From a virus (Duplodnaviria; Heunggongvirae; Uroviricota; Caudoviricetes), in the IMG/VR virus record IMGVR_UViG_3300023174_000034: a DNA stretch of 64,000 nucleotides; one strand, 5' to 3'. The notes beneath the pieces are model-generated. The model was not told where the DNA came from. It saw only the letters and a program-made list of their open reading frames with translations, and did not search any database. Both the position numbers and the translations under genes were made by a program. The number at the start of each line of letters is the position of its first letter. Within the stretch, counting starts at the first letter, position 1. This document shows, piece after piece, positions 8,749-28,030 of the stretch.

Positions 8749-10941
8749 ATGATCATCAGTAACGCACCAGCCCACGAAGCTGTCCTGTCTAATGTAGGCG
8801 AAATCGGCGAGTTCCGTATCCGCAACTCAGCCAAGGCCTTTAATATTCTTAGCTCTGGCCTTTACGCCAACAAGATCCGTGCCATCGTGCGCGAGCTCTC
8901 TTGCAATGCAGTAGATAGCCATACAGCCGCAGGCCGCCAAGACACACCCTTTGATGTACACTTGCCCAACCAGCTGGACCCTACCTTTAGCATCCGTGAC
9001 TATGGCACTGGCCTGACTCATGCACAGGTGCAGAACATCTACACCACCTACTTTGAGTCAACCAAGACCGAAAGCAATGCGTTCATTGGCGCACTTGGAC
9101 TGGGTAGCAAAAGCCCGTTCAGTTACACAGACAACTTCACTGTGACTGCTATCAAAGATGGTACCCGCGGTGTGTACAGTGCATTCATCAACGGCGAAGG
9201 CGTGCCTAGCATTGTGCTCATGCACTCAGAGCCCACAGATCAGCCTGCAGGTGTTGAGGTTAAATTTGCAGTAAACAGCCGCAATGACTTCCACAAGTTC
9301 GAAGAAGAAGCTCGCTATGTGTACACCTACTTTGCTCTGCGCCCTGTGGTGTCAGGTGGTGACAGCGACTTCCGTTTCCGCGACGTTGACTACAAGGAAA
9401 AGAACATTATCCCGGGTGTGCATTACACTGACAGTCGTTCCAGCCGTGCTGTGATGGGCAATATTTCCTATCCGATCGATGTGCCCAATGCAGAAACCGC
9501 ACTAGGCGATCTCCACAGGCTCTTGGACTGTGGATTGGAAATGCATTTTGACATTGGCGAACTGGACTTCCAGGCCAGCCGCGAAGGCTTGAGCTACATT
9601 CCGCAGACCGTGAATGCTATCCGTGCCAAGCTAGAAGCACTCAACGCTCAGTTGGCTGTTCACGTGCAACTGGAAGCAGACATCATTGCCAATGATTGGG
9701 AAAAAGTTTACTTCTTGCAAAAGAAAGCCAACGAAACCCTGTTCAAGTCAGCGGCTGTGAAGTATGCACAGGATACCAAATTTGATCTGATTGACACTGC
9801 CAACAGCTACTACATGCGTGGTGTGCCACTCAAGTTTGATATCAAAGACTTGGCCAGCAAGTACAACATCGAGATATTGGCTTTCCAAAAGAGCCGTCAC
9901 GGTGCCACTTGCTCTGAGATCAAACCCAGCAAGGTGTATCCAACTGCTACGATTATCGCCGCAACAGATATCAATCAAGTGTGGGAATTTACCATTGACC
10001 CTAGCAACATCTTTGTGGTCAATGATACCCGTATTGGTGCGTTGAGCCGTGCCAAGTATCACTGGCGCAATGCCGAAGCCAAAGGTATCGCTTTGCCAAG
10101 CAAGAGCCATACCAATAATGTGTACGTTTTGAGTCCTGCTACTAAAGGCAAGGTCATGGATACCATTGGCTTCTTTGCTGACATGCGTGACCCTCCTGTG
10201 ATTCAGCGCATGGTAGCCAGCGAGCTCATGCTCAAAGATCGCAAGACTGGCGCCGCAGGCATGGGTGCTAATGTAAGTATCCTGCGCCTGGCTCAACGTG
10301 GCTACGGTGGCTATCACAAAGAGCGTGAACTAGTCTGGAAGGATGCAGGCAAGGCTGATCAATTTGATGACAGCGAAACCTACTACTACCTGCCACTCAG
10401 TGGTTTTACTGTGATATCAAATGGTACGCCTATCACACAAAACATGCGTCACTTCAGTGATCTGGTTACCGAATCAGGCATCCCAGGTTTGCAAGGTATC
10501 AACATTCTTGGTGTGCGTAAAACGGACATTGAGTACATCAAGACTCAATCCAATTGGATCAATGTGCAAGATCACATTCGCACAGTTTTGGCAAAGTTGG
10601 ATCCAAAAGTTGTACAACAATGTGCGTTGAAACAGATTGACACGAACAAGTATTTCCGCTACAATAAGGTTATTGCAAAACTAGTGTCGCCTAACAGTGC
10701 ATATTCAAAGTTTTTGGCTCAGTTCAAATTCGTTGACAATGTTACAGTTAACAAGCACAGTTTGCAAAAATTGTGCTGTGACTATGCAACACCAGTTGAC
10801 GTGGACACGGTTGTCCAGGGCCTTACGGATCAATTGACTGCCATCCGTAATCGCTATCCACTCTTGAGCAGTTTGCGTGACTACGACATCAATGCAGATG
10901 CTGTGGCACAGTACATTAACTTGATTGACAAAGAGGCTTAA
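8749..10941 (+). CDS. rIIA: rIIA membrane-associated protector protein (GHKL/HATPase_c-like N-terminus).
   Basis: 730 aa. ELSCNAVDS...IRDYGTGL...GALGLGSKSPF resemble Bergerat-fold ATPase motifs. Size and position immediately upstream of a clear rIIB. Confidence 0.8.
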   Translation: MIISNAPAHEAVLSNVGEIGEFRIRNSAKAFNILSSGLYANKIRAIVRELSCNAVDSHTAAGRQDTPFDVHLPNQLDPTFSIRDYGTGLTHAQVQNIYTTYFESTKTESNAFIGALGLGSKSPFSYTDNFTVTAIKDGTRGVYSAFINGEGVPSIVLMHSEPTDQPAGVEVKFAVNSRNDFHKFEEEARYVYTYFALRPVVSGGDSDFRFRDVDYKEKNIIPGVHYTDSRSSRAVMGNISYPIDVPNAETALGDLHRLLDCGLEMHFDIGELDFQASREGLSYIPQTVNAIRAKLEALNAQLAVHVQLEADIIANDWEKVYFLQKKANETLFKSAAVKYAQDTKFDLIDTANSYYMRGVPLKFDIKDLASKYNIEILAFQKSRHGATCSEIKPSKVYPTATIIAATDINQVWEFTIDPSNIFVVNDTRIGALSRAKYHWRNAEAKGIALPSKSHTNNVYVLSPATKGKVMDTIGFFADMRDPPVIQRMVASELMLKDRKTGAAGMGANVSILRLAQRGYGGYHKERELVWKDAGKADQFDDSETYYYLPLSGFTVISNGTPITQNMRHFSDLVTESGIPGLQGINILGVRKTDIEYIKTQSNWINVQDHIRTVLAKLDPKVVQQCALKQIDTNKYFRYNKVIAKLVSPNSAYSKFLAQFKFVDNVTVNKHSLQKLCCDYATPVDVDTVVQGLTDQLTAIRNRYPLLSSLRDYDINADAVAQYINLIDKEA

Positions 10942-14803: not shown

Positions 14804-15418
14804 TTAATTTTTAACATAATCTTGCAGTTCTTTCTTTTGTTGATCAGCACGTTCCTTGGCCTGCCTTCTTAGAACTAAATTGCGGTCTGCTACCTTTTGT
14901 TCATAAATTCTTTTTTCTTCCATCTGACCGTACACACCAATGCCAACCATGACAAATGCAAACACCACAACAGAGCCTGCTAGAAAATACATGGCCATCA
15001 TACCCATGTCTGCCATTTTTTTCTTGTGCGCCAGTTGACGTTCTTCTTCTGCACGTTGGGCTTCTGCACGTTCCTTGAACAGTCTGGTGCGTTCTTTGAT
15101 CATGTGTTCCCACAGTTCAGGCTTGCCCAATTGCCAAAGAATCATGTCTTTGAGATCACGTTCGGCTTGACGTAGAGCATCACTGTGCATGGCAATTTGC
15201 AGGGCTTCGTGGCCTAGTTCTGCATCTGTTTTGCCTTGTATACTAGCTTTGGCTTTTAACTTTGTTCGTTCACGATGTATGGAATCTGAACTTTCAAAAA
15301 ACTTGCTGAACTGCCCTGCAAGACTATTGATATCTTTGCCCAAGGCTATGGCTTGCTTTATGTGACTGACCGCAGATTGTGCGGCCGCGAAGGCAAGCCC
15401 GATAGTGATTGGATCCAT
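14804..15418 (-). CDS. Membrane-anchored coiled-coil protein.
   Basis: 204-aa ORF with a hydrophobic segment (MMAMYFLAGSVVVFAFVMVGIGVY) and a charged, EERQ-rich region. Confidence 0.5.
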   Translation of the reverse strand: MDPITIGLAFAAAQSAVSHIKQAIALGKDINSLAGQFSKFFESSDSIHRERTKLKAKASIQGKTDAELGHEALQIAMHSDALRQAERDLKDMILWQLGKPELWEHMIKERTRLFKERAEAQRAEEERQLAHKKKMADMGMMAMYFLAGSVVVFAFVMVGIGVYGQMEEKRIYEQKVADRNLVLRRQAKERADQQKKELQDYVKN

Positions 15419-15442: not shown

Positions 15443-15471
15443 TTGACAACAGGTGCAAATAAATATATACT
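15443..15471 (+). promoter_or_regulatory. Sigma70 promoter (TTGACA-N17-TATACT) for the tmRNA precursor.
   Basis: Near-consensus boxes about 7 nt upstream of the tRNA-like acceptor piece. Confidence 0.55.
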
Positions 15472-15477
15472 GTAGGT

Positions 15478-15543
<66 letters not shown>

Positions 15544-15725
15544 AAGGAAATTTGTGAAAAGTAAGAGTAAGTTCAGTCGTTATAATCTTAAAGGCAATAT
15601 TATGTGGTGCCTAAATTTGCGTAACGGATGGGTAAGAATTTACAACACTATGATTCGTTGGAATACCGATTGGACAACTAATTATAGATACTTTTCAATA
15701 GAACAAATAAAAGTTTCTTTATGAT

Positions 15726-15978
15726 GGGGGTGACCTGGCTTTCGACAGGGCAAAGAGTAAACAAGTGGACAGCACGGTAAGGCAGAAACCGTAGGGTTGG
15801 GGGAACTCGGCCGTAGACGCAAAAAACGTAAATGCAAAAGCAAATACAACATCTGGTGTTAAAGTAACAGTAGGCAAAGGTTTCCGTTTCGGCGGTTCCA
15901 AGTCTGCTCGCACTGAGGCAGCTTTCGCCTAAACAGCGAAACCAGCGGGGTAGGACTTACCTTGTAAAATAAACAACC
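15726..15978 (+). ncRNA. ssrA: tmRNA coding piece: 5' acceptor strand, tag reading frame 15819-15932 and 3' helices.
   Basis: Starts GGGGGUGACCUGGCUUUCGACAGGG (compare E. coli GGGGCUGAUUCUGGAUUCGACGGG). GGGGGUG pairs with CACCUCC of the upstream piece, giving a G3:U70 wobble. Resume context UAGAC-GCA (E. coli UAGUC-GCA). The frame stays open to TAA. Confidence 0.7.
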
Positions 15979-16001
15979 ATGGGCCTCCGGGCCCATTTTT
16001 C
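15979..16001 (+). terminator. Rho-independent terminator (ATGGGCCtccgGGCCCAT + TTTTT) ending the tmRNA precursor.
   Basis: 7-bp stem followed by a T5 run. Confidence 0.65.
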
Positions 16002-16002
16002 T

Positions 16003-16251
16003 ATGCTAGAATATATCTTAACCTTCCTTGCCGTGTTCTTACTGGACGTGGTCTACACATACTATCTGCGATGCGTCAAAGATGGTCGTGTGTTGATGGC
16101 CAGCGGCTGGAGTGTGGCCTGTTACATTGGTGGAAGTGTGGCAGTTATCAATTATACATCGGACCACTGGATGCTGATACCTGCGGCAATAGGCGCCTTT
16201 TGCGGAACCTATGTGGGCATGAAGATCAACGTCGCATCAGTTGATCAGTAA
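16003..16251 (+). CDS. Small membrane protein (about 82 aa).
   Basis: Two predicted TM helices. The ORF track starts at 15979 inside the terminator, so the ATG at 16003 is more plausible. Confidence 0.4.
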   Translation: MLEYILTFLAVFLLDVVYTYYLRCVKDGRVLMASGWSVACYIGGSVAVINYTSDHWMLIPAAIGAFCGTYVGMKINVASVDQ

Positions 16252-16960
16252 ATTCCAACAGTAACTCATGATGTCTACGCTCATGCCAGTGTGGCTTGAG
16301 ATAATTGTAATTGTACCAAAACTGTTCGCTTTCGGGATGGCAACCAATTATGCCAATCCTTTTCTGATATATAGCCATGGCGTCACCATTGGCATAGGTG
16401 GCAACTGTTTGATACCGTCCGGGTCCTACCAAAGCGCATCCGTCATAAAAAAACATCCTTTCGGATGTGCCGTTCCATGTCACTGCCAGTGCCTTTGCAT
16501 GTGGGCGGCGTGTGTCTGTGCCGGGCTGTGTGATGTACTGCACAGCATCTACTCCATCTAGTATGTTGAAGTAGTTTGACCCTGCCCAGTAGGCACCCAT
16601 ACAGATTCCCAAATAATAGCCGCCACGACCAACAAAGTCCAACACTTTCTTTTTGTTGGGTTTTAATATCTTGTGCCAGCTGTCCGAATCGCCGATGCCG
16701 CCCGGAAATGCCACCATGTCCACATCATCAAAAAACACATCTTCGACTTCATTTTTGCTGAATACTTTGAAGTGATAATACTGCCCAAGCGCCTGCATCA
16801 TTCCATTTCCACACTGGACTGAGCACTTGGGATCATTGATATACAGGGCAATAGTGGGCTTCACAAGCGTATTTATAAAAGCAAATGTTACAAGCCGTGT
16901 AATATTACGGATTCCTTTTTTACAGCCCGAATGCTTAAATAATAAAAAGGGCGCCTTCAA
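16226..16960 (-). CDS. Class-I glutamine amidotransferase-like / peptidase C26-like hydrolase.
   Basis: Nucleophile elbow GGYYLGICMGAYWAG (G-x-C-x-G) and GCHPE His-Glu motif. Confidence 0.5.
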   Translation of the reverse strand: MKAPFLLFKHSGCKKGIRNITRLVTFAFINTLVKPTIALYINDPKCSVQCGNGMMQALGQYYHFKVFSKNEVEDVFFDDVDMVAFPGGIGDSDSWHKILKPNKKKVLDFVGRGGYYLGICMGAYWAGSNYFNILDGVDAVQYITQPGTDTRRPHAKALAVTWNGTSERMFFYDGCALVGPGRYQTVATYANGDAMAIYQKRIGIIGCHPESEQFWYNYNYLKPHWHERRHHELLLEFTDQLMRR

Positions 16961-16963
16961 TCT

Positions 16964-17791
16964 ATGGATCCATTAACACTCTTTGCACTTGCCAACGGAG
17001 CTGTCTCTGCTGTTAAGGCTGGCTGTAAACTCTACAAAGACATCAAGGGTGCGGCTGGGGAAGTAAATGATGTTCTCAAAGACCTTGATAAACAATTCCA
17101 TAAAATATATGATGCCAAGCCCGGCGGTGCTCCCCCTGCGGCGATCAAACAGCTGAACGAAGAAAAAGCCCGAGTCAAAGAGCTGAATAAAAAAGCCAAC
17201 GCAGAAGAACACACTGGTATCTATCAAGAAATTGGCGAGCACCTGGGCGCATATTATGACAACCTACACAAGTGTATGGCAGTGTTTGAAAACGAAGAAC
17301 GACGTAGCAGGAACGAAATTTACACAGGCGATGCCAGCCTAGGCAAACGTGCGCTACAACGTGTGCTGATGAAAAAGCAACTGGAACAAATGGGTACAGA
17401 ATTGCGTGAGATAATGATTTATCAATCGCCACCTGAACTGGGTGCGCTGTATACCGAAGTAGAAGAAATGATGACAAAGCTGGGCGATCAACAAAAAGTT
17501 CTGCTCAACCGTCAGCTCAACATCGAGCATGCCAGATCAGTGCAACGTGCCAAGCAAATGGCAAAACTCAAGAACAAGCTGTGGGGTGTGGGCGGAATAC
17601 TTGTGGTACTGTTATTTTGGATTTTTTGCATGTGGTGGGTGGCAGAAAGACGCATAGAAGACTATCCTGAATACGGAACTGGCTTTTTCCCACGCCTGGT
17701 GTCTGACCATGATCGTATTGTGGCAGAAAGAAATAAAAAATACTGGGATGCAAAAGCCGCCGAATATCGCAACCGTCAGAACAACCGATAA
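16964..17791 (+). CDS. Coiled-coil protein with a C-terminal TM segment.
   Basis: 275 aa. Hydrophobic WGVGGILVVLLFWIFCMWWV. Confidence 0.5.
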   Translation: MDPLTLFALANGAVSAVKAGCKLYKDIKGAAGEVNDVLKDLDKQFHKIYDAKPGGAPPAAIKQLNEEKARVKELNKKANAEEHTGIYQEIGEHLGAYYDNLHKCMAVFENEERRSRNEIYTGDASLGKRALQRVLMKKQLEQMGTELREIMIYQSPPELGALYTEVEEMMTKLGDQQKVLLNRQLNIEHARSVQRAKQMAKLKNKLWGVGGILVVLLFWIFCMWWVAERRIEDYPEYGTGFFPRLVSDHDRIVAERNKKYWDAKAAEYRNRQNNR

Positions 17792-18000
17792 CAAATATAA
17801 TATTATGATCACAGCTATTTTTTTAGTATTCCAGTTAACAGCCGTACAGTATGAATGTGTCAGATGGAGATGGACCGGTGATGTGTTTGATCGCAAGGTC
17901 TACTGCGTGGAGTGGCGAGTAAAAGATTGTTCTAATAGACTGCACAAAGAACTGTGCGAAAAGAGCAGTTAGATAAATACTTGTTCAGGAGGACTCAACC

Positions 18001-18159
18001 ATGAAACAGAAAAAGCTACTAGCTGAACTGTACAGGGCTTGCGTCGACCACGATGCCAAAAAGATTGCGGAGCTTCGTCAAGAAGAATTCCGCAAGATTG
18101 CGAAACACAAGGCCGAAGGTAAGCACTTTACAACCAAGTGGACTTTGGTAAGGATCTAA
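18001..18159 (+). CDS. Small basic protein (52 aa).
   Basis: AGGAGG RBS 7 nt upstream of the ATG. Not in the ORF track because it is under 60 aa. Confidence 0.35.
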
Positions 18160-18300
18160 TATGATGGAATATATTGGTCAATTTATAGGATTAGGTGTAT
18201 TGAGTTTCATTGTTTATTTGATTGTTGAAGAACAAATCCGTAAACAAAAAAAGTAATACAACTGTAATCTTTGTAACACGGTGCTACGATAAATACTGCT

Positions 18301-19185
18301 ATGCAGAAAACTTATCGTAGCATTTTTATTTCTGACGTACACCTTGGCACTCGAGACTGCAAGGCCGAGGCTCTCAACAATTTCCTTAAACACAATTCAT
18401 GTGAATCGCTTTATCTAGTGGGTGACATCATTGATGCCTGGAAGATACAGCAAAACAAATGGCGGTGGAAACAGAGCCATACCAATGTTGTGCGTAGGGT
18501 GCTAGGTCATGCCAAACGCGGTACTCGAGTTATCTATGTAGCTGGCAACCACGATGAGTTTTTACGCCCAATGATACCATATGGTTTTTCATTTGGCATG
18601 ATAGAGATACACAATCAGATAGAACACATAGGTGCAGACGGTCGGCACTATCTTGTGGTACACGGCGACTTGTTTGACGGTATCACTAGACTGGCCCCTT
18701 GGCTCAGCTTTTTAGGAGACAAAGCATATGATATCATTCTTGCGCTCAATTCAAAATTTAATTGGATCCGTCACAGACTGGGTTTTGGGTACTTTAGTCT
18801 TAGTCGTTATCTTAAGCACCGAGTAAAAAAAGCAGTAGACTTCATATTCAAATTTGAAGAAAATCTAGCAGGCTACTGCAAAAAGCGTGGCTTTGACGGT
18901 GTGATATGTGGACACATACATCATGCTGAGATCAAAGACATCAACGGTATAGTATACATGAACGATGGCGACTGGGTAGAAAGCTGTACAGCACTGGTAG
19001 AGCATCACGATGGTCGTTGGGAGATTGTGACATGGACACAGGAGAAAGACAATGTGGCTGATGATCCTGATAGCAGTACACATCAACGACCCGCAAGATC
19101 AACCCGGAAGAGTAGAAATGCAGTTTCCGGATCAGCCAACATGCCAAGCGGCATTGAGCACAATCAAGTGGCAACTAAAGTTTAA
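18301..19185 (+). CDS. Calcineurin-like metallophosphoesterase of the LpxH (UDP-2,3-diacylglucosamine hydrolase) type.
   Basis: SDVHLG, GDIIDAW (LpxH GDLFEAW), GNHDEFL and HGDLFDG blocks in LpxH order. Confidence 0.55.
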   Translation: MQKTYRSIFISDVHLGTRDCKAEALNNFLKHNSCESLYLVGDIIDAWKIQQNKWRWKQSHTNVVRRVLGHAKRGTRVIYVAGNHDEFLRPMIPYGFSFGMIEIHNQIEHIGADGRHYLVVHGDLFDGITRLAPWLSFLGDKAYDIILALNSKFNWIRHRLGFGYFSLSRYLKHRVKKAVDFIFKFEENLAGYCKKRGFDGVICGHIHHAEIKDINGIVYMNDGDWVESCTALVEHHDGRWEIVTWTQEKDNVADDPDSSTHQRPARSTRKSRNAVSGSANMPSGIEHNQVATKV

Positions 19186-19206
19186 GAGTTTCAAGGTGGT
19201 AGGCGA

Positions 19207-20211
19207 ATGCAAAAAACAATCTTAGTAGTTACTGACAACTTACCGGAGCAGATCAATGGTGTGGTTACGACCTACAAAAATATTGAGGCGTGTGCTGTTC
19301 GTGACGGTTATAACTTTGTGGTGTTGGATCCCGGGCGGTTCAGCTACATTGATTGCCCTGGCTACAACGAAGTCAAGATTGCCTATCCGCGGAACTTGGG
19401 CGAGAAGATTAAGGAGATATCTCCGGATTATATCCACGTCGCCACAGAGGGTCCTCTTGGTCTGTGGGCTAGAGCATATCTTTCACTGGCTGGTATTCGC
19501 CACAATACCGCTTATCATACTAAGTTTCCTGAAGGCCTGAAAAAGTTATTTGGTATTCCAGAATGTATTACCTGGCGTTTTGTACGCTGGTTTCACAAGC
19601 ACTCGGGCAAGGTACTGACCACAACGGACAGCATGGTAACAGAGTTGCAAGCACATGGTTTTGACGGCGAAGTTATTCCCTGGACACGTGGTGTTGACCG
19701 TGACATATTCCATCCAGCACACAGGGTACAAACAACCAGCCGATATCTCTTGTGTGTGAGCAGAGTAAGCAAGGAAAAGAATCTAGAAGCATTCTTTGAA
19801 ATGGACTTTCCTGGCTATCTCAAAATCATGGTAGGCGATGGTCCCATGCTAGAAACATATCGTAAACGCTATCCTGATGTGCATTTCACAGGATTCAAAA
19901 CAGGTGTAGATCTAGCACGTTATTATGCCAACGCAGAAGTGTTTGTGTTTCCCAGTGAATGGGAAACTTTTGGTATTGTGATGATTGAAGCCATGGCCTG
20001 TGGCACACCTGTTGCGGCTTTTCCTGTGCAAGGACCAGAAGATGTGGTTGATGAAGGTGTAACAGGTTGCCTAAATGACAACCTAAAGCAAGCAGTCCGT
20101 GATGCTCTCATGCTGGACCGTAGACTTGTCTGGAACGGCAGTGCTCGATGGTCGTGGGAACGTGCCTGGGATATTTTCCGAAATAATTTGGTCTCAGTAA
20201 CAAAACCGTAA
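19207..20211 (+). CDS. Family GT4 (GT-B fold) glycosyltransferase.
   Basis: EWETFGIVMIEAMACGTPV (E-x7-E motif). Confidence 0.75.
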   Translation: MQKTILVVTDNLPEQINGVVTTYKNIEACAVRDGYNFVVLDPGRFSYIDCPGYNEVKIAYPRNLGEKIKEISPDYIHVATEGPLGLWARAYLSLAGIRHNTAYHTKFPEGLKKLFGIPECITWRFVRWFHKHSGKVLTTTDSMVTELQAHGFDGEVIPWTRGVDRDIFHPAHRVQTTSRYLLCVSRVSKEKNLEAFFEMDFPGYLKIMVGDGPMLETYRKRYPDVHFTGFKTGVDLARYYANAEVFVFPSEWETFGIVMIEAMACGTPVAAFPVQGPEDVVDEGVTGCLNDNLKQAVRDALMLDRRLVWNGSARWSWERAWDIFRNNLVSVTKP

Positions 20212-20280
20212 CACTAGCGGTGTTAAATAATGTAACCGACCACAAGGATTGAGTGGCGCTGGAACTCGTAACCAGCAGGC

Positions 20281-20307
20281 AAGACAACTTCGGTTGTCTT
20301 TCTTTTG
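20281..20307 (+). terminator. Rho-independent terminator (AAGACAACttcgGTTGTCTT + TCTTTTG).
   Basis: 8-bp stem with a UUCG loop, followed by a T-run. Confidence 0.55.
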
Positions 20308-20333
20308 ACTAGTCACTGCACACAATATATAAT
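20305..20333 (+). promoter_or_regulatory. Sigma70-like promoter (TTGACT-N17-TATAAT) overlapping the terminator T-tract.
   Basis: Consensus boxes with 17-nt spacing, upstream of the OMP gene. Confidence 0.5.
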
Positions 20334-20377
20334 TGTGCAAGTGATAATAATCACTGTTTTTTCAAAAAGGAAATTAA

Positions 20378-20824
20378 ATGAAGAAGTTAATTGCAATGGC
20401 CCTAATTTTGGCCGCAGGCGCCGCAAGCGCATTTGAAGTTGGTGTAACAGGCACACGTGACTATTCTGGTACAGACCGCAATGGTGGTGGTATCACCATT
20501 GGTGAAAAAGTCGGTAGCATTGGTGTTACAGCAGGCTTTGAGCGTTTTACATCTGGTTCAAACGACCAAGACCGTTACAGCGTTGTGGCCGGCTATGATG
20601 TTGCCAAATTTGGTCCAGTCACTGTTACTCCAAAAGTTGGCGTAGCATACTTGAACAACCAAACTGGTTCTGATGGTTATGCACTAACTGTTGGTGTTGG
20701 TGCCAGCGTTCCTGTGGCACAGAAGATTAGCCTAGGCCTAGACTATGCACGTCAATATGGTCAAGACCGTGTTAATTCATTCGACGGCAATCGCGTTACT
20801 GTCAGCGCACGTTACGCATTCTAA
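20378..20824 (+). CDS. Small outer-membrane beta-barrel protein (OmpW/Ail/OmpX-like) with a signal peptide.
   Basis: Signal MKKLIAMALILAAGAASA. Alternating hydrophobic strands. C-terminal ARYAF ending in Phe. Confidence 0.5.
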   Translation: MKKLIAMALILAAGAASAFEVGVTGTRDYSGTDRNGGGITIGEKVGSIGVTAGFERFTSGSNDQDRYSVVAGYDVAKFGPVTVTPKVGVAYLNNQTGSDGYALTVGVGASVPVAQKISLGLDYARQYGQDRVNSFDGNRVTVSARYAF

Positions 20825-20845
20825 TCTCAACTTGATTAGTCCAAA

Positions 20846-20870
20846 GGCCCTTGACGGGGCCTTTCTTTTT
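20846..20870 (+). terminator. Rho-independent terminator (GGCCCttgacGGGGCC + TTTCTTTTT).
   Basis: GC stem followed by a T-run. Confidence 0.5.
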
Positions 20871-20879
20871 GTGTATAAT
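20851..20879 (+). promoter_or_regulatory. Sigma70-like promoter (TTGACG-N17-TATAAT) embedded in the terminator.
   Basis: The -35 box lies in the hairpin loop. The -10 box is 17 nt downstream. Precedes rubrerythrin. Confidence 0.45.
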
Positions 20880-20902
20880 ATCTACTATCGAAGGAGAATC
20901 AA

Positions 20903-21367
20903 ATGCCATTAGAAAAATCATCAATCACATTGGAAAACCTTGCCAGTGCCCTGGCCGGTGAAAGCCAAGCACACATCAAGTATCGCTACTTTGCAAAAAT
21001 TGCCAGAGAAGAAGGCCACGAAGAAGTAGCCCAGCACTTTGAGCACACCGCAGATCAAGAACTGTTACATGCCTGGGGACATTTGGAATTGCTAGTTGGC
21101 AAGCCAGATACTCGCAAGTGCCTGGAAATGGCCATTGAAGGTGAGACATATGAGTTCACCACTATGTATCCAGGATTTGAACAGCAGGCACGTGCCGAAA
21201 ACGATCGTACTGCACAGTATGAGTTTCGCAATCAGATTGTTGAAAGCACAGAACATGCTGAACAGTTCAAGTCAGTGCTGGCCAAAGCTGAAAAGCGTTT
21301 TGCCGCACTCAAGCGAGTTGAACAGCGTCATGCCAACGCATACACACAAGTATTGGAGAGTCTATAA
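20903..21367 (+). CDS. Rubrerythrin-like ferritin-fold diiron protein without a fused rubredoxin domain.
   Basis: ExxH-type motifs (GESQAHIKY, ELLHAWGH, EGETYEF, EHAEQF). Confidence 0.6.
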   Translation: MPLEKSSITLENLASALAGESQAHIKYRYFAKIAREEGHEEVAQHFEHTADQELLHAWGHLELLVGKPDTRKCLEMAIEGETYEFTTMYPGFEQQARAENDRTAQYEFRNQIVESTEHAEQFKSVLAKAEKRFAALKRVEQRHANAYTQVLESL

Positions 21368-21501
21368 TGCCTGAAACACACGTATGCGTGGTATGTGGCC
21401 ACGAACATGATGAAGCACTAGAAGGTGCATGGAACGATCTGCCCGAGGACTTTGTTTGCCCTGAGTGCGGTTGTGGCAAAGAAGACTACGAGGCACTATA
21501 A
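21367..21501 (+). CDS. Rubredoxin (44 aa).
   Basis: VCVVCGHEHDE...FVCPECGC gives two CxxC knuckles. TAATG overlap with rubrerythrin. Absent from the ORF track because it is under 60 aa. Confidence 0.7.
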   Translation: MPETHVCVVCGHEHDEALEGAWNDLPEDFVCPECGCGKEDYEAL

Positions 21502-21920
21502 TGTTAGAATGCTTGATACTTGGAGATTCAATAGCAGTAGGCACATCACAGGCTAGACCTGAGTGTGTGAGTTATAGCAAAGGCGGATGGAATAGCTGGC
21601 AATGGAATAAAGACTATCTTGTCAAAGCATCAACTCAATTAGCTAAAACTGTGATTATCAGCCTCGGCGCCAATGACCATAAGGGTGTAAAGACTGAGCA
21701 AGAACTACGTAAGATGCGCGAAGCTATCAATGGCGATCGTGTGTACTGGATTGATCCGGGACAGGATCGTAAACCTATTCCACACGATGCAATCGTTCGT
21801 ATTGCTAAAGAGTACGGGGATACAATCATTGCTCGACCTAAAAATCACATGAGTGCTGACGGTGTACATCCTACCGGTACCGGATACAAAATGATTGCTG
21901 AGCAAACAAAAGGCAAGTGA
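21501..21920 (+). CDS. SGNH/GDSL-family hydrolase.
   Basis: Block I LILGDSIAVG, GANDH, block V DGVHPTGTGY. Confidence 0.55.
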   Translation: MLECLILGDSIAVGTSQARPECVSYSKGGWNSWQWNKDYLVKASTQLAKTVIISLGANDHKGVKTEQELRKMREAINGDRVYWIDPGQDRKPIPHDAIVRIAKEYGDTIIARPKNHMSADGVHPTGTGYKMIAEQTKGK

Positions 21921-22141
21921 TGCAAATGAGAGTAAAAGAAAACCCCAGTGATGTTGGCCGTTGTGGCTGTGGTCGTAGCCCAAGTGGCTACTGCTGTGGG
22001 TGGCATGGCCTTACAGAAGCAGAATACAAAAACGAACTTGCGTTGTATGAATACAAGAAGCAAGCACAAGCATTATGGAATGACAGTTGCACCAGCCCAA
22101 GGGCAGAACCACCTGTTGAGAGTGAAGGCGGAGAAATCTAA
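21917..22141 (+). CDS. Small Cys-rich protein (RCGCGRSPSGYCCGWHG).
   Basis: ORF coupled to the previous gene by an ATGA overlap. Confidence 0.4.
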   Translation: MMQMRVKENPSDVGRCGCGRSPSGYCCGWHGLTEAEYKNELALYEYKKQAQALWNDSCTSPRAEPPVESEGGEI

Positions 22142-22371
22142 TGCCATACAATTTCAAGATAGCAATGAACGCAACCATTAGTCCTGTAGTAGTTGAAGAA
22201 ATGATTCGTGCCGCAGTCGAGAATCAAACAGGTAAAAAGATTACCAAAGTTGAAATCCAAATGGACGATGATGGCAAATTTGCTGGCTATGCTGTGAACT
22301 TTGATGAGGTCAGCGCCAAGCACGTCATTGCCGGAATCCCTGACAGGACCTTTGTTCCGGACACCTACTAA
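22141..22371 (+). CDS. Hypothetical small protein.
   Basis: Coupled ORF (ATGA overlap). Confidence 0.4.
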   Translation: MPYNFKIAMNATISPVVVEEMIRAAVENQTGKKITKVEIQMDDDGKFAGYAVNFDEVSAKHVIAGIPDRTFVPDTY

Positions 22372-22483
22372 TGGTTATTACTAACACAGAATCATGAAAT
22401 TCAGTATGTGATTTTTCCATTTTTACCTGTACACTAGGCATACATACATTAGACATCACGGTATGTTCAACTAGGAGAAAATT

Positions 22484-22558
22484 ATGAAATGGTCTACACC
22501 AACTGCAAGCGACATGCGTTTCGGGTTCGAAATCACTATGTACATTGCAAATCGTTAA
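22484..22558 (+). CDS. pqqA: PqqA-like precursor peptide (24 aa: MKWSTPTASDMRFGFEITMYIANR).
   Basis: AGGAG RBS 7 nt upstream. Matches the PqqA family pattern W-x-x-P...D-[LM]-R-x-G-F-E-[VI]-T-[LM]-Y-x-[AS]-N-R with the Glu-x3-Tyr crosslink pair. Terminator follows. Confidence 0.5.
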   Translation: MKWSTPTASDMRFGFEITMYIANR

Positions 22559-22583
22559 TCAGTTAACAAAAGTACTACCAGGA

Positions 22584-22611
22584 AAACCCTTGTTGATCAA
22601 GGGTTTTTTTG
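22584..22611 (+). terminator. Rho-independent terminator (AAACCCTTGttgatCAAGGGTTT + TTTTT), cassette copy 3.
   Basis: Same stem family as the hairpins at 8093 and 12906. Confidence 0.6.
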
Positions 22612-22624
22612 TGGCCTAAAACGG

Positions 22625-22653
22625 TTGACCAAGAATGCCCATTTTGCTATAAT
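22625..22653 (+). promoter_or_regulatory. Sigma70-like promoter, family copy 6 (TTGACC-N17-TATAAT).
   Basis: Conserved AAAACGGTTGACCAAGAATGCCCATTTTGCTATAAT. Confidence 0.6.
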
Positions 22654-22682
22654 AGCGACATGTTCAATAAAAAGGTGTTGAC

Positions 22683-23132
22683 ATGACCCTGCTTGTTTTT
22701 CTTGTTGCATTTGCAATCTTTTGCGTTCGCAGTAATTCGGGCTATTGGCTACTGGTACTGCCCGGCACGATTGTACACGAAAGTCTACATTATTTCACAG
22801 GCAAACTTTTGTTTGCAGGTCCGCAGACTTTTAACATTGTGCCACAACATCACGAGAACGGCACCTGCTACGGCTCTGTGGACTTTGACAATTTGAATGA
22901 GTTCAATGCGCCGCCCACTGCACTTGCACCCTTGCTAGGTGTGCCTTTGGTTTACTATGTGTGGCCCTACTTGCAAACAACACAAAATGGCTGGGCTCAG
23001 ATTGCTATCATTTGGGCCTTGGCCGCGATTGTTGCACAAAGCTGGCCTAGCTCAACTGACTGGGCTGTGGCACTAAAGCATCCGTTGGGACTAGTACTTT
23101 GGACTGTCTTTATCGGCTGGATTTTGTTGTGA
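22683..23132 (+). CDS. Small membrane protein with an HExxH motif (GTIVHESLHYFTG), a possible minimal zinc peptidase.
   Basis: 149 aa. Hydrophobic N- and C-terminal segments. Confidence 0.45.
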   Translation: MTLLVFLVAFAIFCVRSNSGYWLLVLPGTIVHESLHYFTGKLLFAGPQTFNIVPQHHENGTCYGSVDFDNLNEFNAPPTALAPLLGVPLVYYVWPYLQTTQNGWAQIAIIWALAAIVAQSWPSSTDWAVALKHPLGLVLWTVFIGWILL

Positions 23133-23152
23133 AAATACAACAAATAAAACGG

Positions 23153-23181
23153 TTGACCATAAATGCCCGTTTTGCTATACT
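23153..23181 (+). promoter_or_regulatory. Sigma70-like promoter, family copy 7 (TTGACC-N17-TATACT).
   Basis: Conserved context. AAGGAG and ATG at 23212. Confidence 0.6.
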
Positions 23182-23211
23182 ATAGGCTAAGTTAAACAAA
23201 AGGAGCTGAAA

Positions 23212-23538
23212 ATGATCGCACTAGACAACCTTGAATCTATTTGCAATACTGCTAAATCTGCCGCAGAACGTGCAGAAGCAGAATTCCGTGCCAAGCACGG
23301 TGAACCTGGTTACTGTGGCTTTGCGTGGGTGCATGTGAGCGAAAAGGCCAGCACCAAGCTGGGTCGTGCGCTGAAGAATGTGGGTTTCCGCAAAGAGTAC
23401 GGTGGCGGCTTGAGCTTGTGGAATCCCGGTGGTAGCTTCACGCAAAGCATGGACATCAAAGAAGCAGGCGCACAAGCCTACGCTGATGTACTTCGCCAAC
23501 ATGGCATTGATGCGTACATGAGCTCACGTGCAGACTAA
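23212..23538 (+). CDS. Hypothetical protein (108 aa).
   Basis: Promoter/RBS-driven ORF. Confidence 0.5.
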   Translation: MIALDNLESICNTAKSAAERAEAEFRAKHGEPGYCGFAWVHVSEKASTKLGRALKNVGFRKEYGGGLSLWNPGGSFTQSMDIKEAGAQAYADVLRQHGIDAYMSSRAD

Positions 23539-23547
23539 GGAACAACT

Positions 23548-23922
23548 GTGAAAGCATTTTTAGAAACTACTGTGTGGGAAGGTGCCGAAGGCAAAAACTA
23601 CAATCATGTGTACTGGCTGAACAACAGCAAGGAAAAGATGTATGCCTATGCCAAGTTCGGCAACCCAGCAGAAGTTACTACGTTCAAGACTCCGATCCAG
23701 ATTGACACCCGTGGACGCAAGTTTGAAGTGGTACGCAATGACATCTATGGTTGGGTTGATGAGGACGAGGCAGTGATTTCAGCAAACCCAACCTGGACAA
23801 TTACGGGCAGTAAGGGCGACAAGTATGTTGTAGAAAAAGATGGTTCAGTGTATAATTGCACTTGTTCAGGTTTCAAATTCCGCGGTGATTGCCGCCATAT
23901 CCAAGAGGTACAAAATGCTTAA
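23548..23922 (+). CDS. SWIM zinc-finger protein.
   Basis: CTCSGFKFRGDCRHIQ gives a CxC...CxH signature. Apparent GTG start. Confidence 0.5.
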   Translation: MKAFLETTVWEGAEGKNYNHVYWLNNSKEKMYAYAKFGNPAEVTTFKTPIQIDTRGRKFEVVRNDIYGWVDEDEAVISANPTWTITGSKGDKYVVEKDGSVYNCTCSGFKFRGDCRHIQEVQNA

Positions 23923-25222
23923 ACCATGGGAAGTGATTGCAGAGCTGGAAGGTGACAACAGCCGCTTGATCAAAGAAGCAGTGATACGCCGTGAAAGTGA
24001 AAACAGCAACGACGAACTGTTCCGTGGCTTCCGTGCCGCATATGATGCCATGATCACCTTTGGTGTCAAAAAGGTAGAGCCCAAGACAGGCAACGGCAAA
24101 GGACTCAAAGCAGAACGTTTCTGGCGTGTGGCTCAGGAATTGAGTGAGCGCCGATTGACTGGCAATGCCGCACAGACTGAAATCAATGCCATGCGACAAG
24201 ATGCCACACAAGCAGAATGGAACGACTGGTATCGACGCATCCTGATCAAGGACATGCGCTGTGGTACCAGCGACAGCACCATCAACAAACATGCACAAGA
24301 AAAATATCATGTGCCTGTGTTTTCCTGTCAGCTGGCACACGACGGCGCCAATCACGAAAGCAAGGTGTCGGGCGAAAAACTGATTGAAGTCAAGCTGGAT
24401 GGTGTGCGTGTGATTACCATTGTGTATCCAAATGGACAAGTGGATCAGTACAGCCGCAATGGCAAAGAGCTGGCGAACTTTCCGCATGTGAAAGAACAAT
24501 TGAGCAAGCATGCCGCGCTGTTTGCAGAACCCATGGTACTGGATGGTGAGATCATGAGTAGCAGTTTCCAAGACTTAATGAAGCAAGTGCATCGCAAGAG
24601 TGATGTCAAAGCCAATGATGCCATGCTCAACCTGTTTGACATGATCACGCTTCGTGAGTTTCAAGCAGGTGCAGGCACTCAGCGGCAGATTGATCGTAGT
24701 ACTACTCTTAAGGCCTGGTATGACAGCATTGAAGCACACATGCCAGATGTCACTGTGGTAGGACAAGAGCTGGTGGACCTGGGTACTGCAAAAGGTGCCG
24801 CACGTTTTGCAAAGATCAACACAGATGCAGTGGCACATGGCTACGAAGGCATCATGATCAAAGATCCTGAAGCTGTGTACGAAACCAAGCGAAGTGTGGC
24901 CTGGCTCAAGCAAAAGCCCTTTATCGAAGTGAGCTTGACTGTGGTAGGCTTTGAAGAAGGCACAGGCAAGAACGCAGGCCGCCTGGGTGCCTTGATCGTG
25001 GAAGGTGTGGATGACGGCAAGACTATCCGTACCAATGTGGGCTCAGGACTCACTGATGCCTTGCGTGAAGCTATCTGGAGCAGTCAGTCCAAGGTGCTGG
25101 GTAGCGTGGTTGAAGTGCGAGCAGATGCCGCAACACAGAACCAAGACTCGGATGGTGAATGGAGCCTGCGCTTTCCACGATTCAAGGGTTTCCGTGGATT
25201 TGCAGTAGGAGAGAAACTGTGA
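23915..25222 (+). CDS. ATP-dependent DNA ligase.
   Basis: Adenylation motif I KLDG (LIEVKLDGVRVI). Nucleotidyltransferase and OB regions of appropriate length. Confidence 0.75.
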   Translation: MLKPWEVIAELEGDNSRLIKEAVIRRESENSNDELFRGFRAAYDAMITFGVKKVEPKTGNGKGLKAERFWRVAQELSERRLTGNAAQTEINAMRQDATQAEWNDWYRRILIKDMRCGTSDSTINKHAQEKYHVPVFSCQLAHDGANHESKVSGEKLIEVKLDGVRVITIVYPNGQVDQYSRNGKELANFPHVKEQLSKHAALFAEPMVLDGEIMSSSFQDLMKQVHRKSDVKANDAMLNLFDMITLREFQAGAGTQRQIDRSTTLKAWYDSIEAHMPDVTVVGQELVDLGTAKGAARFAKINTDAVAHGYEGIMIKDPEAVYETKRSVAWLKQKPFIEVSLTVVGFEEGTGKNAGRLGALIVEGVDDGKTIRTNVGSGLTDALREAIWSSQSKVLGSVVEVRADAATQNQDSDGEWSLRFPRFKGFRGFAVGEKL

Positions 25223-25383
25223 CAGTTGAACGCACAGAAATAGACTGCCCACGATGTGGTGGTGGCTGGTACATGGACCTAGACGAAAGTGGTTGTCCAT
25301 ACACCTGCTACCATTGTTGCAACGGTACCGTGAAATGTTACGAAGATGAGCTAGAGAATGAACATGAACAAGACAACAAATGA
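25219..25383 (+). CDS. Small zinc-ribbon protein (CPRCGG...CYHCCNG).
   Basis: GTGA overlap with the ligase stop. Confidence 0.35.
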   Translation: MTVERTEIDCPRCGGGWYMDLDESGCPYTCYHCCNGTVKCYEDELENEHEQDNK

Positions 25384-25645
25384 AGTGATGGACATCCTGC
25401 AGGAAGAGTGTGCAGAAGTGATCCAAGCAGTGAGCAAGATCCGGCGCTTTGGTATCGATAATCACAAGCCCGGTCGGATGAATCCCAAGACCAACAGAGA
25501 GCACCTGGAAGAAGAACTGGGTGATTTGTATGCCATGATTGATATCCTGCAGGAACTGGATATTGTGAGCTGGGCTGGTATTGAAAAGGCCGCAGAAGCC
25601 AAACGTGAGAAACTAAAGACCTGGAGTACTATATTTCATGTCTAG
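25358..25645 (+). CDS. mazG: MazG-like nucleotide pyrophosphohydrolase domain protein.
   Basis: Two EExxE-type helices (LQEECAEVIQAV and EEELGDLYAMIDILQEL). Confidence 0.55.
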   Translation: MNMNKTTNEVMDILQEECAEVIQAVSKIRRFGIDNHKPGRMNPKTNREHLEEELGDLYAMIDILQELDIVSWAGIEKAAEAKREKLKTWSTIFHV

Positions 25646-26363
25646 GATTGTAGTGTGTGGAGACAGCTTCAACACCTACGACACCAGATACCCAGGCCTG
25701 CACTGGGCAGATCAATTGGCGCCACATGAAGTTTATAGACTGGCTCGTGCCGGCGCCAGTAACTTTTCAATCTGGCATCAGGTCGTGCAAAGCAAAAAGT
25801 TCAATCCCGATGTGGTGTTGGTGTCATTTACCAGCTGTCCCAGGGTAGAATTTGCCATTGCAGAGCCAGACTTTTTTAGTGATATTCTTGTGCCGTGGGT
25901 GCAAAGCACAGGGCGTGTGGTGTGGAATAACATTGTTAACATCAAGTATGTGGAAAAGCCCACAGCAAACCTACGCGAACTTGAAGCCAAGCTAAGGAAG
26001 AAAATGGAAGAGTCAATCGACCATGCCATTCCAGCTGGTTACAAGACTGAAGTGTTCAATGACTGGGCACGTAAGTTTTACATAGAACCATTTGAAGTAC
26101 TTAAAAACTATCTGTACATCAAGGCCACCTTGGATTATTTGGAACAAGCCGGCATCCGGTACTATGCAACTCTTGGCGGGTACACAGACTTTGTTGGAAC
26201 TGCAACTCAAGAGATCTGCATCGAATTTGAAAAATATGCAAGTGTGCTAAAACTGCCAAACGGTTGGGACCACGAACAGAAACTTGCTGATCCTTATTTC
26301 CATATTGAAGATCCTGTATACCACAAGAACCATGCAGATCTTGTGCTAAAGCTATTGTCATGA
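25638..26363 (+). CDS. Possible second SGNH-type hydrolase.
   Basis: N-terminal VVCGDSF (GDS block). Confidence 0.4.
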   Translation: MSRIVVCGDSFNTYDTRYPGLHWADQLAPHEVYRLARAGASNFSIWHQVVQSKKFNPDVVLVSFTSCPRVEFAIAEPDFFSDILVPWVQSTGRVVWNNIVNIKYVEKPTANLRELEAKLRKKMEESIDHAIPAGYKTEVFNDWARKFYIEPFEVLKNYLYIKATLDYLEQAGIRYYATLGGYTDFVGTATQEICIEFEKYASVLKLPNGWDHEQKLADPYFHIEDPVYHKNHADLVLKLLS

Positions 26364-27091
26364 TCCCCAAGCTATTGATACAAACTTCGCCAAATGCCAG
26401 GCCTGATCCTGCGTTACGCAGGCACCTGGTGGCTCAGCTTGGTCCGGGCTGGACCTATAGGTATTTCACTGATGCAGATATACTGGAATACTTCCGTGAC
26501 AATCCATTGGTTGGATACGAAAACATTGAACGCCGTTGGCATGCCATGCCATCCGGTCCACTCAAGGCAGACTTGTTTAGGTATTATTTTCTCTATGTCA
26601 ACGGCGGCGTATTTTTAGACTATGATGCCATGATCTACACAGGCCTATCCGGGTACTGTGAGCAATATGACTTGTTCTCAGTAGCAACCAATGATGCCAA
26701 GATGTTCAACGGGTTCGTTGGATGCAGGCCACTCAGCCCAATTATGAAAACCATGTTACACGATGCGTATTGGGTGAATGTTGTTGTGTTGTCCAATCGA
26801 CATCATCTGCTACTTGAGAATATGAACAAGATTGTGCGTGGGCACACAGGATCCGAAAAAATATTCCTTTTTGGTGAGCATGTAAACGACACTCAAGGAA
26901 TTGTAGTTGACAACAATACCCAGGTTGCTGTACACTACTACAAGCACAAAGTGATCCCAAACCCAGGAGTAATAAAATTATGGAAATTGTATATAACACA
27001 GCCCCAGATGATCTGGATGTGGACAGTCGCAATCGTGAAATCCGTCTCATGTTACATCACGGCGTGTGTGAAATCACCTTTACCAAGGTAA
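26360..27091 (+). CDS. Glycosyltransferase with a DXD sugar-binding region (Och1/TcdA-like Gly_transf_sug).
   Basis: DADILEYFRD...ADLFRYYFLYVNGGVFLDYD. Confidence 0.55.
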   Translation: MIPKLLIQTSPNARPDPALRRHLVAQLGPGWTYRYFTDADILEYFRDNPLVGYENIERRWHAMPSGPLKADLFRYYFLYVNGGVFLDYDAMIYTGLSGYCEQYDLFSVATNDAKMFNGFVGCRPLSPIMKTMLHDAYWVNVVVLSNRHHLLLENMNKIVRGHTGSEKIFLFGEHVNDTQGIVVDNNTQVAVHYYKHKVIPNPGVIKLWKLYITQPQMIWMWTVAIVKSVSCYITACVKSPLPR

Positions 27092-27436
27092 ACGGTGAAA
27101 CACGTACCATGCCCTGTACCTTGGACAGTGCCTTGCTACCACCACAGCCACTGAAAGAGTTTCATGAGACTCGTGCGTACAAGCCCGAGACCTTGAGTGT
27201 GTGGTGCCTGGACAAGATGGAATGGCGATCATTCCGTGTGGCCAATGTAACACGGATTGTGCGCACACAATGAACGACACACAGCATTGGCAGTTGATGA
27301 CCTTGTTGGTGCCACCTGCAGAGCTGGCCGCGATAATCCAGCGAGTGGAAGATGGCACCATCAGTCACGCCAGTGCTAGGATTGTGTTCAACGAGATCTA
27401 CGAAACCAATCGTGCCAGGTTATTAGGAGTTGAACG

Positions 27437-27637
27437 ATGACACTAGAAGATTTGCAATATATCTTTGATCGCCAGATAGAAGAAGGTACTGAGAAACTGT
27501 ACTTCATGCTGGTAGATGGTGATCGCTTGCCTGTGGTTCAGCGTCACCCTAGTACGGATCTGGCTGGACTGTTGCCCATGTTATCTAGTTTTGAATACGC
27601 TGGCTCACCTGCTGGCATGCCGAGGTTTACTAAATGA
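27437..27637 (+). CDS. Hypothetical small protein.
   Basis: Coupled ORF. Confidence 0.35.
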   Translation: MTLEDLQYIFDRQIEEGTEKLYFMLVDGDRLPVVQRHPSTDLAGLLPMLSSFEYAGSPAGMPRFTK

Positions 27638-27864
27638 ACGAACGAATTACTCAACTTGCTGAACAGGCTGTGCGTTATGCCTTGGATAAAGCAAATGAAG
27701 GTGAGGATGAAGATTATGAATATTCCTTTGATGATGACTTTCAAGAAAAGTTTGCCGAGTTGATTGTGAGAGAATGTGGCGTAGCATTGAGTCCGATGTT
27801 GCGTGATATGGTCAGTAGAGGGAAGGCATACGATATGATTAAACAACATTTTGGAGTTGAATGA
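27634..27864 (+). CDS. MNERI-family small acidic protein, paralog 1.
   Basis: MNERITQLAEQA...FAELIVRECG...IKQHFGVE. Confidence 0.5.
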   Translation: MNERITQLAEQAVRYALDKANEGEDEDYEYSFDDDFQEKFAELIVRECGVALSPMLRDMVSRGKAYDMIKQHFGVE

Positions 27865-28030
27865 TGTGCGAAGAAATGAGTGACTTGATTAGACAATACA
27901 TCAAAGACAATTTACGGCTTGAGGTTAGGACAGATTCCATATACAATGGTGGCAGTGACGGTCCCATGTACACCGACTGTCACAGTATTCAACTAATCCT
28001 TGATGGCGAAATAATTAGTGAGGTATCATT

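Follow-up and report, generated by a model that had tools for sequence, protein, structure and literature searches.

A phage-borne plcP-agt gene pair behind a Pho-box-like repeat points to phosphate-stress lipid renovation by a jumbo phage

Why would a phage carry a phosphoesterase and a glycosyltransferase side by side, just ahead of a gene for an outer-membrane protein (OMP)? The question is raised by a 64,000-nucleotide stretch of viral DNA (IMG/VR record IMGVR_UViG_3300023174_000034; hereafter the window, with positions counted from its first letter), in which a metallophosphoesterase (MPE) gene at 18301–19185 is followed by a GT4-family glycosyltransferase gene at 19207–20211, both on the + strand. 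A sequence-only reading of this region had proposed an LpxH-type phosphoesterase within a coherent envelope toolkit that might remodel lipid A or lipopolysaccharide (LPS). Here we argue that 18252–20300 holds an auxiliary operon of the phage, made up of two genes and orthologous to the bacterial PlcP-Agt lipid renovation system, by which bacteria starved of phosphate replace membrane phospholipids with phosphorus-free glycolipids. The phage operon would convert host phospholipids to glycolipids under phosphate stress, a reading to which we give a probability of roughly 0.78. It is carried by orthology, conserved catalytic residues, gene linkage and a shared upstream motif, each of which was computed directly.

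The phosphoesterase gene, plcP, is an intact open reading frame for a protein of 294 residues with a basic, disordered tail from about residue 250. The product contains the GDIIDAW and GNHDEF motifs and exceeds the Pfam Metallophos cut-off (37.9 against 21.5 bits). Over some 250 aligned residues its identity to PA3219, the PlcP of P. aeruginosa, is 56% (E 1e-94) and that to SMc00171, the PlcP of S. meliloti, 49% (E 1e-86); these two share 46.6% identity, so that each is nearer to the phage protein than to the other. Both are experimentally characterised phospholipases C with a published mutual identity of 46% (PMC8528852), a figure reproduced by our own, which confirms the identification of the two sequences we extracted. 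A tblastn search of a plasmid collection found them in records that derive from the chromosomes of the two species. The P. aeruginosa match adjoins a family-1 glycosyltransferase gene and cyaB, and this position beside PA3218 and cyaB identifies it as PA3219, while the S. meliloti match adjoins a pair of genes for LuxR and an acyl-homoserine lactone (AHL) synthase. We take this pair to be sinR/sinI, and the gene hence to be SMc00171. The published criterion for PlcP, a BLASTP E-value below 1e-40 to MED193_17359, was applied here through PA3219 and SMc00171.

The MPE motifs are complete (DxH, GD, GNHD/E, H, GH and GHxH, including G41-D42 and G82-N83-H84-D85) and are invariant when aligned with PA3219 and SMc00171, and across an alignment of 35 diverse homologues D12, H14, D42, N83, H84, H121, H205 and H207 are unchanged. 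A rough neighbour-joining tree, built without bootstrap, places a monophyletic phage clade within the PlcPs, with LpxH as a distant outgroup. PlcP is a lipid-acting paralogue of LpxH, and in the AlphaFold2 model of the phage protein (pLDDT 83.7) the MPE core is interrupted at residues 122–195 by a helical lid; the ten best PDB matches in Foldseek are all LpxH (E 1.4e-10 to 1.8e-9), with Mre11/SbcD at about 1e-6. Since an LpxH-type lid is presumably shared by PlcP, the fold does not discriminate between the two. Family models and identities do: the protein falls short of the NCBIfam LpxH equivalogs NF003743 (44.5 against 134 bits) and TIGR01854 (34.2 against 190.35 bits), matches E. coli LpxH at 23% identity over 122 residues (33 bits), and finds the LpxH chains of the PDB by sequence at E 4e-5 at best. 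The motifs and LpxH-like fold of the sequence-only reading therefore stand, but the name does not, and the phosphoesterase is best assigned as a PlcP orthologue, not as LpxH. Neither its sequence nor its model contains a signal peptide or transmembrane segment.

Homologues of this gene occur in other phages: in Pelagibacter phage Mosig one adjoins pstS, and in Synechococcus phage S-SRM01 one is embedded among clustered auxiliary genes for photosynthesis and redox functions. The closest PlcP outside the viral collection, at 60% identity, is encoded on a 348,090-bp contig of a ‘Pseudomonadota’ metagenome-assembled genome (JBCCBQ010000005.1), a contig that may be bacterial or a mis-binned jumbo phage; this plcP is preceded by a bacterial-type Pho box, CGTCATAAAACTCTCAT, and has no adjacent glycosyltransferase gene.

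The partner gene, agt, follows plcP after a 21-nt spacer that holds an AAGGTGG ribosome-binding site. It too is intact and encodes 334 residues with GT-B GT4 architecture, matching Pfam Glycos_transf_1 (86.5 bits) and Glyco_transf_4 (49.5 bits), both above cut-off, and containing the E-x7-E stretch FPSEWETFGIVMIE, as the sequence-only reading had recognised. The phage protein is 39.9% identical to PA3218/Agt1 (GTpa in PMC8231724) over 331 residues, that is over its full length (E 7e-79), and expression of PA3218 in E. coli suffices for synthesis of monoglucosyl-diacylglycerol (PMC8528852). Members of the Agt/GTcp clade are reported to be less than 25% identical to other GT4 enzymes and are marked by GRVAxEKN, FPSxTDTFG, a Gly-rich motif and a His104-Asp256 dyad, the HTCC7211 GTcp being likewise 334 residues long (PMC8231724). 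Comparison with these published motifs finds His104 (in HTKFPE), TEGPLG, SRVSKEKN and FPSEWETFG...E in the phage protein, with Glu at the Asp256 position, and we assign it as an Agt orthologue and putative diacylglycerol glycosyltransferase. An intrinsic terminator at 20281–20300 on the + strand (AAGACAAC-TTCG-GTTGTCTT, then TCTTTT) closes the plcP-agt unit.

Gene order gives ground for treating the two genes together, linkage to a gene for making lipids free of phosphorus (agt, a pgt-type glycosyltransferase or btaAB) being expected of a plcP. Among 80 proteobacterial loci recovered with the phosphoesterase as query, 55 have a GT4 homologue (37–46% identical) directly 3′ of plcP on the same strand, and plcP followed by agt is the ‘type 2’ and commonest arrangement of Sebastian et al. 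(PMC4796936). We also collected 80 related viral loci, of which 78 have enough downstream sequence to be judged; all 78 have a glycosyltransferase gene after the phosphoesterase gene, immediately adjacent in 76 and within about 1 kb in the other two. The partner is a GT4 in 23 of these loci and a non-homologous, 239-residue GT2 in 55. The other neighbours, namely a BPL_N gene, the OMPs, rubrerythrin/rubredoxin as against AhpC/AhpD, and an SGNH-like gene, vary in identity or position among close relatives. The glycosyltransferase being constant while the rest is shuffled, the conserved unit consists of the phosphoesterase and glycosyltransferase only, and the envelope toolkit of the sequence-only reading contracts to this pair. 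The GT2 partner (for example at 8907–9626 of relative L003, and in 54 other viral loci) has a GT-A/GT2 fold type unrelated to GT4 and matches generic GT-A families only, its best NCBIfam match, TIGR04283, being far under cut-off, so that no lipid glycosyltransferase family can be assigned to it.

The third line of evidence lies upstream. From 18252 to the plcP start codon the + strand of the window reads AGTAAT-N5-TGTAAT-N3-TGTAAC-N12-TAAATA-N5-ATG (18252–18303), in which Pho-box-like direct repeats (18252–18277) comprise AGTAAT at 18252–18257, TGTAAT at 18263–18268, hence an 11-bp period, and TGTAAC at 18272–18277, and a TAAATA core resembling a T4-type late promoter occupies 18290–18295, five nucleotides ahead of the ATG. 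With one mismatch, this repeat is the sole + strand match in the window to TGTMAY-N5-TGTMAY, the form taken in relatives, where the period is again 11 bp and the half-sites are one base off the proteobacterial Pho-box unit CTGTCAT. Within 71 unique regions upstream of phage plcP genes the motif is exact in 28 and present with at most one mismatch in 40, always between -58 and -35, as against none of 436 control windows at the one-mismatch level; TAAATA follows the repeats of the relatives at a fixed N11 or N21. Other exact copies in these loci are nearly all upstream of pstS or of a gene whose product starts MRFEDLAARL. Of 14 unique loci with a phage pstS, 12 have the motif ahead of that gene, some half-sites being the canonical TGTCAT or TGTCAC, and the PstS proteins of the relatives are full length (398 bits to the NCBIfam PstS equivalog, cut-off 339). 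Although pstS is absent from the 64-kb window, it was seen in relatives (L106 at 243–1250, L110, L118, L127, L129, L132, L133 and L146), directly abuts plcP in L106, L110, L127, L132 and L133, and is divergently adjacent to it in phage Mosig. On the bacterial side the PA3219 promoter carries TGTCAC-type units at the same 11-bp period, and a Pho box has been reported for PA3219 (PMC8528852). Given a Pho-box-like repeat ahead of the operon and the same element ahead of pstS in relatives, the operon is probably expressed in response to the PhoB/PhoR signal by which the host registers phosphate starvation, and we infer that PhoB binds at the repeat.

Some observations attach to this control region. 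The MRFEDLAARL gene (214–315 residues; L098 at 7990–8643, L107, L112, L123 and L149) has the same repeat and TAAATA upstream in all five loci, and its product has no Pfam or NCBIfam match; we regard it as a possible third gene in such a regulon of the phage, after plcP and pstS. In Mosig the divergent pstS-plcP intergenic region (5842–5991 of the extracted locus, L001) contains repeated [TC]TTAAC units, again with an 11-bp period, and an ATAAATA five nucleotides ahead of the ATG of the plcP homologue, the same tight spacing of promoter and start as in the window. Over the whole window the Pho-box pattern is not enriched (8 found, 9 expected) and is therefore not a general promoter element. TAAATA occurs 18 times on the + strand, ten of them within 35 nt upstream of gene starts, where 0.7 would be expected, including those of structural genes at 45843, 53074 and 57163 (examples lie at 45818, 53049, 57140, 44561 and 5248), while ATAAATA alone is not enriched in the window (11 against 8). 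TAAATA is thus probably the T4-type late promoter core of this phage.

What kind of phage this is bears on what the operon would be for. The window encodes RIIA (433 bits), an ATP-dependent DNA ligase, a 2255-residue tail protein and a virion protein that is 43% identical to its counterpart in Synechococcus phage S-CAM1, and an rIIB-like neighbour of RIIA is seen in relatives. A contig of 373,949 bp carries an OMP 100% identical to that of the window, phosphoesterases 80–85% identical occur on contigs of 330–513 kb and in an IMG/VR genome of 359,563 bp, and more than 550 related stretches are present in IMG/VR. From these genes and contig sizes we place the window in a T4-like jumbo phage with a genome of about 0.37 Mb; megablast of window positions 16000–28000 against isolated phages gave no match.

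From the orthology and conserved residues we infer the enzyme activities, and with them the benefit to such a phage, as follows. PlcP, dependent on Mn or another metal and provided with an LpxH-like lipid-binding lid, would cut the phosphodiester of host glycerophospholipids (phosphatidylethanolamine, phosphatidylglycerol or phosphatidylcholine), giving diacylglycerol and a soluble phospho-headgroup. Agt would then move glucose or glucuronate from a UDP-sugar onto the diacylglycerol, yielding a phosphorus-free glycolipid that would keep the bilayer intact while diacylglycerol is removed. Host phosphatases would free phosphate from the phospho-headgroups for nucleotide synthesis towards a genome of about 0.37 Mb, and the Pho-box-like repeat would couple the operon to the PhoB/PhoR starvation signal of the host.

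Several points weigh against this reading. The gain in phosphorus may be modest: by simple arithmetic a 374-kb duplex contains about 0.75 million phosphorus atoms, and each Phaeobacter cell is reported to hold 0.54 million atoms of phospholipid phosphorus, each Dokdonia cell 2.6 million, of which starvation mobilises between a third and a half (PMC4796936), so that the phospholipid pool of a cell is worth about one such phage genome. Phosphorus for one genome would nevertheless count for a jumbo phage whose host is starved. On the regulatory side, the first half-site of the window repeat is mismatched (AGTAAT), the element proximal to plcP is the late-type TAAATA and not a sigma-70 -10 box, which leaves PhoB-type activation there unexplained, and published work warns against relying on predicted Pho boxes of phages unless binding assays bear them out (PMC10976474). 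Conservation of the motif among related phages is also in part inheritance, though the flanking sequences have diverged. As for the enzymes, the phage Agt has Glu, the general GT4 residue, at the position of catalytic Asp256 in GTcp, and most relatives pair plcP with the small GT2, whose lipid role is putative and to which no gene of the 80 bacterial plcP loci is homologous.

How do other explanations fare with the same evidence? That the phosphoesterase is LpxH making lipid X, with the GT4 and the OMP joining in lipid A or LPS remodelling, would accord with the LpxH-like fold and helical lid, with the weak NCBIfam matches to LpxH models and with the annotators at JGI and GenBank, who call homologues LpxH or UDP-2,3-diacylglucosamine hydrolase. 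The protein is nonetheless far under both LpxH equivalog cut-offs and much closer to two proven phospholipases C than to E. coli LpxH, the orthologue of the GT4 is a diacylglycerol glucosyltransferase and not an LPS core transferase, the regulatory motif is held in common with pstS, and Pfam and NCBIfam scans of the neighbours found no further lipid A gene. Nothing links the phosphoesterase to lipid A or LPS, a role that we consider very improbable, and the remodelling of these molecules in the sequence-only reading gives way to the PlcP-Agt match. Still weaker is the case for a generic nuclease of DNA repair, akin to SbcD/Mre11 or PdeM, to which PHROG and NCBIfam matches (‘DNA repair exonuclease’, PdeM) are weak and confined to the N-terminal 90 residues; with Mre11/SbcD trailing LpxH by four orders of magnitude in the fold search and strong full-length PlcP orthology, this possibility, which the sequence-only reading had named as a challenge to itself, is effectively refuted.

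A lytic or membrane-attacking phospholipase for lysis or entry, with an unrelated glycosyltransferase that modifies, for example, DNA or protein, would explain the late-type promoter core directly upstream of plcP. Against it stand the unbroken association of phosphoesterase and glycosyltransferase genes in the viral loci and the GT4 downstream of plcP in most of the bacterial ones, the want of any signal peptide or transmembrane segment in the phosphoesterase and the orthology of the GT4 to a lipid glycosyltransferase, and we give this explanation little credence. The more serious competitor accepts PlcP-Agt remodelling as real but sees its benefit in a changed envelope, through superinfection exclusion, altered receptor display or a membrane kept stable while a jumbo phage completes its long infection. 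The two enzymes would act in the same way, a surface β-barrel gene adjoins the operon, and lipid remodelling is reported to alter membrane proteomes, as aminolipids are to affect phage attachment (PMC9804370; PMC9938194). However, the conserved motif upstream is also that of pstS, a gene which adjoins plcP in relatives and in Mosig, and both facts indicate phosphate economy, while the OMP is a separate and interchangeable cassette. We therefore judge an envelope benefit unlikely, though clearly less so than the other three, and favour phosphate-stress lipid renovation.

The OMP gene itself (20378–20824, +) encodes a 148-residue protein whose signal peptide reads MKK...ASA and whose last residue is Phe (...RYAF). 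It is preceded by a sigma-70-type promoter at 20305–20333 (+; TTGACT-17-TATAAT, matching 11 of 12 consensus positions) and followed by an intrinsic terminator at 20843–20864 (+) that overlaps the next promoter (20851–20879). In the AlphaFold2 model (pLDDT 86.7) eight long strands run antiparallel and a single helix forms the signal peptide, and for this model Foldseek returns NspA, Ail, OmpX and the OmpA transmembrane domain (OmpA-TM) as best matches (E 3e-6, for NspA, to 1e-4), with TM-scores of 0.6–0.7 to OmpA-TM and OmpX. The sequence scores 20.2 bits against the Pfam OMP_b-brl cut-off of 28.7, and support for the barrel comes from the fold. This agrees with the promoter-driven, signal-peptide-bearing OMP ending in Phe of the sequence-only reading and disposes of the doubt it had attached, that a β-barrel prediction might be wanting. 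Homologues at least 70% identical occur on other large phage contigs. We had considered these homologues as host copies and rejected the idea because they sit on phage-like contigs, so that they give no clue to the host. Because the gene has its own sigma-70-type promoter and terminators, and relatives hold different OMP_b-brl genes at the same position, the OMP is an independent early-promoter cassette, a transcription unit separate from plcP-agt.

Further downstream, a TTGACG-17-TATAAT promoter (20851–20879) lies just ahead of a rubrerythrin gene (20903–21367, +; Pfam 60 bits), which is followed by a gene for a 44-residue rubredoxin (21367–21501, +; CVVC...CPEC). Sister phages have AhpC and AhpD/CMD instead, two alternative peroxide-defence pairs in a variable region. 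The DXD glycosyltransferase noted earlier at 26360–27091 was borne out (Pfam Gly_transf_sug, 33.9 bits, cut-off 23), but the two SGNH hydrolases were not: the first (21501–21920) scores 28.2 bits against a threshold of 32.9, and the second (25638–26363) has no family or PDB support in Pfam, PHROGs or the PDB beyond an N-terminal GDS motif. PHROGs contains no specific family for the phosphoesterase, OMP, rubrerythrin or SGNH-like genes.

As the OMP is a true β-barrel, a diderm host is implied, in line with the sequence-only reading. The proteobacterial-type Pho box, together with nearest PlcP relatives in Alpha-, Beta- and Gammaproteobacteria, suggests that this host is proteobacterial. A further hint at the host may come from a phage-encoded, permuted (two-piece) tmRNA at 15481–15932 on the + strand (Rfam tmRNA_permuted, 96.6 bits, gathering score 47), for which ARAGORN predicts the tag AKANTTSGVKVTVGKGFRFGGSKSARTEAAFA*; it is flanked by a TTGACA-17-TATACT promoter (15443–15471) and a terminator (15979–15996). 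Genes for such tmRNAs typically belong to Alphaproteobacteria, to cyanobacteria and to some Betaproteobacteria; that of the phage would fit a proteobacterial host but does not discriminate. Two divergent genes, at 14804–15418 (-) and 16964–17791 (+), bracket the segment of the tmRNA and a BPL_N-like gene; the N-terminal 45 residues of their products are homologous (40% identity, E 6e-7), and by eye each translation has a hydrophobic stretch near its C-terminus. The BPL_N-like gene (16226–16960) is on the strand opposite to that in relatives L003–L006, which suggests a local rearrangement.

Set against known systems, the operon most resembles bacterial PlcP-Agt (PA3219/PA3218; SMc00171; PB7211_983/PB7211_960 of SAR11 HTCC7211; Agt atu2297 of A. 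tumefaciens), in orthology, in plcP-agt order, in catalytic and UDP-sugar motifs and in its Pho-box-type repeat, a likeness computed with the PA3219/PA3218 and SMc00171 sequences. It differs in its carrier, a T4-like jumbo phage, in its phage late-type TAAATA element, in the Glu of its Agt at GTcp Asp256 and in the GT2 that most sister phages use. LpxH, the UDP-2,3-diacylglucosamine diphosphatase and nearest solved structure, has the same MPE core and helical lid insertion but, at about 20–23% identity and with family cut-offs out of reach, a different partner gene and regulatory context. Cyanophage pstS and phoA, and the PhoB-bound promoters of S-PM2d (PMC10976474), are alike as phage-carried Pho-regulon-type genes with Pho-box-like elements; whereas those genes import or scavenge external phosphate, phage PlcP-Agt would mobilise phosphorus in the host membrane, and its motif is of the proteobacterial CTGTCAT type as opposed to the cyanobacterial PyTTAAPyPy(T/A). 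The OMP shares a signal peptide, eight antiparallel strands and a C-terminal aromatic residue with NspA, OmpX, Ail and OmpA-TM, but its identity to the solved small barrels is at most 20%, it lies under the Pfam threshold, and its slot is filled by different barrel genes in relatives; its promoter-gene-terminator layout is ‘moron’-like. Phage lambda Lom is a phage-borne precedent for a small outer-membrane barrel.

The PlcP-Agt pathway is well known in bacteria, as are phosphate-stress genes in phages, and what is new is the phage carrier; in the limited collection of literature searched we found no report of a phage-encoded plcP, plcP-agt operon or lipid-remodelling auxiliary gene. Public phage homologues of plcP are annotated as LpxH, and in a lake viral metatranscriptome a transcript labelled lpxH was placed among auxiliary genes for ‘lipopolysaccharide biosynthesis’. 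Such labels on viral plcP homologues misstate their likely role in phosphorus-limited waters. A broader picture, which we offer tentatively and at somewhat less than even odds, is of a widespread jumbo-phage clade with its own small Pho regulon read by host PhoB (pstS, plcP with its glycosyltransferase, and the MRFEDL gene), in which, once a proteobacterium short of phosphate is infected, membrane phosphorus would fund replication of a genome of about 0.37 Mb and glycolipids would back-fill the bilayer, under hybrid Pho-box/T4-late control and with GT4 and GT2 partners swapped, the GT2 perhaps making a different lipid. The shared upstream motif makes a directly testable regulatory hypothesis, and in the exchange of GT4 for GT2 there is a natural experiment to show which glycolipids are able to substitute. 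Phage PlcP-Agt, if the reading is true, would be a viral route to the phosphorus stored in the host's own membrane.

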